Shown: piece by piece, positions 51,353 through 51,735 of the stretch
How positions within the stretch are numbered: the first letter of the stretch is position 1
Layout: the number at the start of each line of letters is the position of its first letter
Assembly (NCBI RefSeq): GCF_030384885.1
Contig: NZ_CP128613.1
DNA from: Escherichia coli
GTDB taxonomy: Bacteria > Pseudomonadota > Gammaproteobacteria > Enterobacterales > Enterobacteriaceae
DNA: 64,000 bases
Direction: 5' to 3' (one strand)
Notes under the pieces: generated by a model
Told to the model about the DNA's origin: nothing
Seen by the model: only the letters and a program-made list of their open reading frames with translations
Database searches by the model: none
Made by a program: the position numbers and the translations under genes

Positions 51353-51499
51353 TTATTGCTGTGCTTTTGTTGCTGCACCAGAAATCGCGTTACCGCCATC
51401 AGAGATATCTTCACCAACGCCACGCGTGGTGTTGCAGGCAGTTAATAATGTTGAAAGCACCAGAACAGAAAAGATCGCTGCAATTGTCTTCTTCACCAT
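51353..51499 (-). CDS. ecnB: Entericidin B bacteriolytic lipoprotein
   Basis: 48-aa ORF read manually ([48 protein letters not shown]); below the track's size cutoff. Confidence 0.85.
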
Positions 51500-51609
51500 A
51501 ACGTCTTCCTTTTAGGTAATGTTATTTATGTTTGCCTATAGCAAATTAATAATAGACAACATCGCCAAAAATGATGGAAATCTGATGATTTTTCGGAAGA
51601 GAAGAAAAA

Positions 51610-51735
51610 TTAGCTGGCAGCGCGGGAGATGGAGTTGCCGAGATGTTTGATATCTTCGCCGAAACCGCGAGCGGTGTTACAGCCCGTGAGCAGCGTGCTG
51701 GCAAGCAAAACAAGAACGATAAGGCGTTTCATCAT
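51610..51735 (-). CDS. ecnA: Entericidin A antidote lipoprotein
   Basis: 41-aa ORF read manually ([41 protein letters not shown]). Confidence 0.85.

Follow-up and report, generated by a model that had tools for sequence, protein, structure and literature searches.

Two small minus-strand lipoprotein genes between efp and gdx of Escherichia coli: the entericidin genes ecnA and ecnB and their toxin/antidote label

Two small open reading frames (ORFs) on the minus strand of the window, a stretch of 64,000 nucleotides of Escherichia coli DNA, are best explained as the long-known lipoprotein genes ecnA and ecnB, a reading to which a probability of about 0.95 is assigned. The gene ecnA was placed at 51610..51735 (41 aa plus stop, ATG start), as supported by the ORF list, the NCBIfam model NF007319, the Pfam family PF08085 and identity to the K-12 protein, and ecnB at 51353..51499 (48 aa plus stop, ATG start), as supported by the ORF list, NF007487 and PF08085. 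An initial annotation of this DNA, made by manual translation, had proposed exactly these two genes and coordinates, and had named a frameshift or a stop in either small ORF as the observation that would speak against them; translation of the minus strand returned both genes at the proposed positions, in uninterrupted frames with zero frameshifts and zero internal stops. That the two ORFs are the tandem paralogous entericidin genes of E. coli is practically certain. Both genes were already known, and the locus in the window is the E. coli entericidin locus proper and not a relative of it. Since ecnA and ecnB are annotated in essentially every E. coli genome, the finding is correct but ordinary, and the biology is unchanged, both genes having been annotated since 1998. 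The value of the case is methodological, as a floor of 60 aa in an ORF list was found to conceal conserved and highly expressed genes.

The identity of the two products was established with curated family models. EcnA matched NF007319 (lipoprotein antitoxin entericidin A) with 114.9 bits against a cut-off of 86, over the full length of the model (1-41/41), and EcnB matched NF007487 (lipoprotein toxin entericidin B) with 120.9 bits against a cut-off of 94, likewise over the full length (1-48/48). Both proteins also exceeded the gathering score of 23.3 of PF08085 (Entericidin EcnA/B), with 26.4 for EcnA and 30.1 for EcnB. When EcnA and EcnB were scored on each other's NCBIfam model, the values (44.5 and 48.9 bits) fell under the cut-off, which leaves no doubt about the A/B assignment. 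With 57% identity, EcnA and EcnB are paralogs of each other, and they carry the labels "lipoprotein antitoxin entericidin A" and "lipoprotein toxin entericidin B" in both RefSeq and K-12. The sequence features of the entericidin family were all observed, namely a full-profile score, a lipobox with its cysteine, a short mature peptide with the core motif and a tandem placement between efp and sugE/gdx. A search of the PDB with a profile of six entericidin sequences gave chance signal-peptide matches only (E = 0.74), which suggests that entericidins have no solved structure.

The intergenic placement between efp and gdx, also claimed in the initial annotation, was borne out by the flanking genes. 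On the minus strand, efp (51787-52353) was recognized by its three EF-P Pfam domains and TIGR00038, and gdx/sugE (50861-51178) by NF008512 (193.5 bits, match 1-104/104), with epmB (52395-53423, plus strand) lying beyond efp and blc (50331-50864, plus strand) beyond gdx. Compared with b4410 and b4411 of K-12 (Bishop et al. 1998, J Mol Biol 280:583), the window holds the same genes in the same order, orientation and lengths, and the gene order epmB / efp-ecnA-ecnB-gdx / blc-ampC is common to both. EcnA matches b4410 at every residue, and the only difference between EcnB and b4411 is Leu18 for Val18 in the core of the signal peptide. Seven synonymous changes were counted over the two coding sequences, and the whole efp-gdx interval (608/609 nt) differs by 18 substitutions and one 1-nt indel (~97% identity). 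The promoter core, the Shine-Dalgarno sequence and the terminator stem of ecnB are common to the window and K-12, and the T-run region past the ecnB terminator is 1 nt shorter in the window. Strain 2013C-4282 was found to be 100% identical to the window over the 621-nt query, with the same gene order. The Leu18 variant of EcnB (51448, codon 18; WP_000239594) occurs in the window and in this strain, and Val18 (WP_000239596) in K-12, IAI39 and all six sampled strains. The lineage of the window is unusual, as identity of at least 99% over 51180-51800 was recorded in only 14 of 5425 E. coli genomes.

Conservation was evaluated in a set of eight E. coli alleles, consisting of the window, K-12 and six further strains taken from successively lower places in the identity ranking, with the efp-gdx interval aligned. 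Both genes were intact in all eight strains, and the third codon position took 19 of the 21 coding substitutions (P = 8e-8), with 13 of 14 variable sites at that position in ecnA and 6 of 7 substituted sites in ecnB. The only amino-acid changes were T14A in EcnA and V18L in EcnB, both located in the signal peptides. Against Salmonella and Klebsiella, dN/dS values (Nei-Gojobori) of about 0.02-0.05 for ecnB and 0.08-0.18 for ecnA were obtained; these ratios are rough, given a nearly saturated dS and such short genes, but their direction is unambiguous. The mature part of EcnB presented 14 synonymous and 0 non-synonymous differences between E. coli and Klebsiella. By these substitution patterns, both genes are under selection at the protein level. 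In the alignment of six sequences from three genera, the lipobox cysteine is invariant in all, as is the mature core C-N-T-x-R-G-x-G-E-D-I together with G33, I36, S37 and A39. A search of 5426 complete E. coli genomes returned the 621-nt interval, annotated as ecnB / ecnA / efp, in 5425 of them, nearly always as a single chromosomal copy. Only 13 of 72,556 plasmid records carry the ecn locus; most of these are records of 0.37-5.4 Mb and are probably chromosomes or chromosomal captures. This single conserved core chromosomal site differs from the mobile or patchy distribution expected of toxin-antitoxin modules.

The initial annotation had described lipoboxes in both products, and the tetrapeptides LTGC of EcnA (Cys19) and LTAC of EcnB (Cys22) do match the pattern [LVI][ASTVI][GAS]C. 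The signal peptides, encoded on the minus strand like the genes, comprise residues 1-18 in EcnA and 1-21 in EcnB, leaving mature peptides of 23 aa and 27 aa, and each n-region holds two K/R in its first five positions, followed by a hydrophobic core. Aspartate at position +2 retains lipoproteins in the inner membrane. Since residue +2 of both mature EcnA and mature EcnB is asparagine and not aspartate, both proteins are predicted to be sorted to the outer membrane via Lol. The pre-lipoproteins would be exported by Sec and modified with diacylglycerol by Lgt at the lipobox cysteine; cleavage by LspA (signal peptidase II) and N-acylation by Lnt would then yield the 23-aa (EcnA) and 27-aa (EcnB) lipopeptides, which LolCDE, LolA and LolB would pass to the outer membrane. 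This course of maturation and targeting is considered very likely for both proteins, judging from their sequence features and standard lipoprotein biology. Lipidation of EcnB at C22 is asserted by curation (PMC12529367). In the outer-membrane vesicles (GMMA) of S. sonnei, EcnB was found to be the most abundant lipoprotein, with 8.4% of protein, and the catalogue of Shigella GMMA places it among the outer-membrane lipoproteins (PMC4820968); its abundance in S. sonnei vesicles agrees with outer-membrane sorting. A simple helical hydrophobic-moment test gave modest support for an amphipathic helix in EcnA (27 of 2000 shuffles as high) and pointed to weak amphipathicity in the Gly-rich mature EcnB (178 of 2000 shuffles as high); the test is not decisive either way.

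The expression signals of ecnB lie in the ecnA-ecnB intergenic spacer (51500..51609, minus strand, 110 nt). A motif search located a candidate σS -10 element, CTATTAT, at 51555-51549, and a further -10-like element, TGCTATAGG, at 51543-51535, which matches the σ38 pause motif TGcTATA(A/C)T; a strong Shine-Dalgarno sequence, AAGGAAG, was found at 51511-51505, 5 nt upstream of the ATG, all on the minus strand. The ecnB promoter has been reported to be σ38-dependent, with the TGcTATA(A/C)T motif causing σ38-dependent promoter-proximal pausing at +17/+18, to be used poorly by the σ70 holoenzyme, and to bear an OmpR site that overlaps the pause region (PMC5389655). Downstream of the gene, an intrinsic terminator was identified at 51310..51347 (minus strand), in which a 12-bp stem (51347-51320) encloses a loop of 4 nt and precedes TGTTTTTTTG. 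Its fold reached -26.2 kcal/mol (z = -5.7, 0 of 200 shuffles as stable), and its two polymorphisms, at 51334 and 51332, are both confined to the loop. By the literature and the motifs located, ecnB is expressed from its own σS-dependent, OmpR-repressed promoter, with a strong ribosome-binding site and its own terminator, and its product accumulates in stationary phase, in minimal medium and under osmotic or envelope stress. The transcript literature places ecnB in the RpoS regulon in both E. coli and Salmonella, and it was measured beside osmB and osmY as a σS reporter (PMC5105897). EcnB has been repeatedly detected by mass spectrometry, is RpoS-linked and belongs to the most commonly detected small proteins of E. 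coli (PMC12529367).

Only 3 of the 110 sites of the spacer are variable among the eight E. coli alleles, and Salmonella shares its conserved core, GATGTTGTCTATTATTAA; by RNA folding the spacer is unremarkable (z = -1.1). The spacer is more conserved than the flanking third codon positions, of which 19 are variable in 91 codons, and this is consistent with a spacer packed with regulatory elements (σS promoter, pause element, OmpR sites). A terminator scan and the RNA fold disclosed no convincing terminator between the two genes, so that co-transcription is possible and the ecnA transcript could continue into ecnB. On the upstream side, a stable hairpin (51755..51778, minus strand; -27.5 kcal/mol, z = -3.7) is found directly past the efp stop codon and upstream of ecnA; since a T-run does not follow it, it is probably a leaky terminator or an RNA-stability element. 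The efp-ecnA gap also holds a cluster of four window-specific substitutions (51744-51779), of which two fall within the loop of this hairpin. A promoter scan of the 51-nt gap (51736-51786) found no σ70-like promoter. The ecnA gene opens with two consecutive ATGs, at 51735 and 51732, preceded by only a weak Shine-Dalgarno-like GAG, and may start at either of them, giving a product of 41 or 40 aa. Its expression is probably low and driven by transcription that reads through from efp or starts within efp.

Two other origins were considered for the small frames themselves. They might be chance open frames in a non-coding efp-gdx spacer, given that 41 and 48 codons are short and that 44 ORFs of at least 20 aa were counted in 2.5 kb. 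This origin was rejected on the grounds of family matches, conservation, signals and protein detection: both products have equivalog-level matches, the genes are intact in 8/8 E. coli, in Salmonella and in Klebsiella with dN/dS far below 1, lipoprotein signal peptides are accompanied by a dedicated ribosome-binding site and terminator, and detection at the protein level has been reported (PMC12529367, PMC4820968), which leaves chance a negligible probability. The other origin places the real gene on the plus strand and makes the minus-strand ORFs its by-products. As the initial annotation had noted, the ORF track is blind to both ecn genes, neither being listed at the threshold of 60 aa, and two plus-strand ORFs appear there in place of ecnB, one of 83 aa (51264..51515) and one of 64 aa (51251-51445), the latter overlapping both the former and ecnB. 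The annotation had mentioned only a spurious antisense ORF nearby; spurious was correct, but the count was not, as two ORFs of at least 60 aa lie over ecnB. They are the sole ORFs of at least 60 aa in the interval, and the 83-aa frame and ecnB have their third positions at the same nucleotides, for which reason third-position bias cannot exclude that frame. Codon-position bias was consequently dropped as a discriminator against the 83-aa ORF, and the indel, the frame reshuffling and the missing family match were used instead. Neither plus-strand ORF gave a Pfam match, and TTG is the start codon of both. Through a 1-nt indel at 51312, the N- and C-terminal halves of the antisense frames are joined in other combinations in K-12 and four other strains (5/8 sampled), so that no single antisense protein is conserved even within E. 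coli. The two ORFs also cross the terminator and the ribosome-binding site of ecnB, while the minus-strand products pass curated thresholds and peptides of EcnB have been seen by mass spectrometry (PMC12529367). The lack of a Pfam match and the reshuffling of frames by the indel mark both ORFs as spurious; they are artefacts that arise where the reverse strand of a constrained gene happens to lack stops, and a real gene on the plus strand is extremely improbable. The earlier advice that small genes in this window need inspection by hand was therefore sound, as the 60-aa floor hides conserved genes and puts spurious antisense ORFs in their place, and the other intergenic gaps of the window merit a scan capable of finding small proteins.

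With ecnA and ecnB retained as the genes, a further alternative touches their function only, and not their identity. The label toxin/antidote, used in the initial annotation, agrees with current annotation, but it was inherited from over-expression experiments and is not visible in the sequence. It derives from one 1998 study, in which, as far as it is summarised in PMC7296081, over-production of EcnB raised bacteriolysis and ecnA in cis counteracted it (Bishop et al. 1998); over-produced EcnB would accordingly cause lysis and EcnA in cis would protect. A genuine toxin-antidote pair at native expression levels is held to be somewhat less likely than not. The alternative is that the two genes are not a true toxin-antitoxin module: EcnB would be an abundant σS/osmotic-stress outer-membrane lipopeptide that serves in structure, in protection, in vesicles or in surface interaction and that lyses cells only under gross over-production, and EcnA would be its paralog, weakly expressed, in divergence and of related function. 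The alternative is given a little less than an even chance. The specific claim that the annotation is wrong for the native function, with EcnB as an abundant σS-induced outer-membrane lipopeptide and EcnA as a diverged, poorly expressed paralog, is likewise put forward with some reserve; if true, it would revise a 25-year-old annotation. The case against the toxin/antidote reading is built on literature and population data and on nothing peculiar to the window.

Several observations favor the non-toxin reading of EcnB. Deletion of ecnA is viable and available in the Keio collection, an Agrobacterium homolog mediates vesicle docking and was found neither to lyse cells nor to form pores, and ecnB-like genes occur without ecnA in many Proteobacteria (PMC7296081). 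About 70,000 copies of EcnB per cell were reported in minimal medium in a small-protein study that leaves EcnA unmentioned (PMC12529367), and its rank as the top lipoprotein of S. sonnei GMMA points the same way (PMC4820968). Treatment with a LolCDE inhibitor induced ecnB about 7- to 13-fold and left ecnA uninduced (PMC5105897), from which it follows that the two genes are regulated separately, and in another setting ecnA was induced without ecnB (PMC5854682). The locus is core and syntenic and almost never on plasmids, and the dN/dS of mature EcnB, about 0.02, reflects very strong purifying selection typical of a housekeeping envelope component. The weak amphipathicity of mature EcnB likewise speaks against a toxin as its native role. 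The evidence on operon coupling is mixed: no convincing terminator separates the genes, yet ecnB has its own σS promoter, the transcript responses are separate, and an IS1 element lies between the two genes in E. coli IAI39 (NC_011750.1, 2176-3062 of the extracted region). Its insertion duplicated 9 bp of target, TGTTGTCTA, and placed it in the spacer between ecnA and the σS -10 element of ecnB, immediately at the latter, with both coding sequences intact; here the supposed antidote and toxin genes have been uncoupled naturally. Against the non-toxin reading, the lysis by over-produced EcnB and the protection by EcnA in cis are the only direct experiments in E. coli, so far as the summary of Bishop 1998 in PMC7296081 conveys them, and the same source relates that an Enterobacter homolog of EcnB was reported as bacteriolytic toward Flavobacterium (Schubiger 2015, via PMC7296081). 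The tandem arrangement, conserved across three genera, fits functional coupling, and no alternative function has been demonstrated in E. coli. The Bishop work is also said to have reported plasmid maintenance by the entericidin locus, which likewise counts against a non-toxin role.

Compared with classical toxin-antitoxin modules such as hok/sok, ccdAB and mazEF, ecnAB shares the arrangement of two adjacent small genes, one of which reportedly counters the lethality of the other when over-expressed. The classical modules pair a cytoplasmic toxin with an RNA or a labile protein antidote, whereas both products of ecnAB are exported lipoproteins and mutual paralogs. Unlike those modules, ecnAB is core-chromosomal, with synteny across genera, and essentially absent from true plasmids; its "toxin" is made from a stress promoter of its own and naturally in very large amounts, and its antidote gene is dispensable. 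Another comparison is offered by OsmB and OsmE, which resemble EcnB in being short envelope lipoproteins under RpoS control that pass through Sec and LspA and are induced by stationary phase or high osmolarity. OsmB and OsmE are not known to have a paired paralog or an antidote, and a sequence relationship to EcnB is not claimed.

In Salmonella and Klebsiella, the arrangement efp-ecnA-ecnB-sugE-blc is as in the window, with both genes intact; these loci were taken from records filed as plasmids but holding chromosomal DNA. The EcnA homologs of the two genera are 43-44 aa long and carry only the NCBI name "entericidin A/B family lipoprotein", and ampC is lacking between blc and frdD in both. 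In Salmonella sp. pPJT1-452kb (NZ_OM317741.1), a gene for a regulator of the LuxR-C-terminal type is located at 2920-3507 of the extracted region, on the opposite strand between ecnB and sugE, a position that is empty in E. coli and Klebsiella. This gene is probably the ecnR described for Citrobacter. The same record shows a chromosomal yjeJ-epmB-efp-ecnAB-sugE-blc-frd segment on a 452-kb conjugative IncHI2 plasmid. Another record, NZ_CP069925.1, is entered as a linear "Klebsiella oxytoca plasmid" of 5317 bp. It matches the E. coli ecnAB region at 97.6% identity, and its sugE, blc, blaEC ampC and frdBCD are of the E. coli type; it looks like an E. coli contaminant contig or a fragment of an ampC amplicon, and not a Klebsiella plasmid.

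An Rfam scan of 50800-52450 returned nothing inside the ecn genes and a guanidine-II riboswitch upstream of gdx only. This full-length guanidine-II (mini-ykkC) aptamer (RF01068) occupies 51196-51242 on the minus strand, directly upstream of gdx/sugE, with 50.4 bits against a gathering score of 32 (E = 1.3e-8) and two hairpins with ACGR loops. It is a known element of the guanidinium exporter gene gdx, and it was invariant among the eight E. coli alleles save for one linker site (51219). Just upstream of the riboswitch, a σ70-like promoter match (TTGAAA-16-CAAAAT with TG) was observed at 51288-51261. The mechanical ORF list stretches gdx across the riboswitch to a TTG at 51241 (50861-51241, minus strand, 126 aa); the real Gdx is the 105-aa product from the ATG at 51178, identical to Gdx of K-12.
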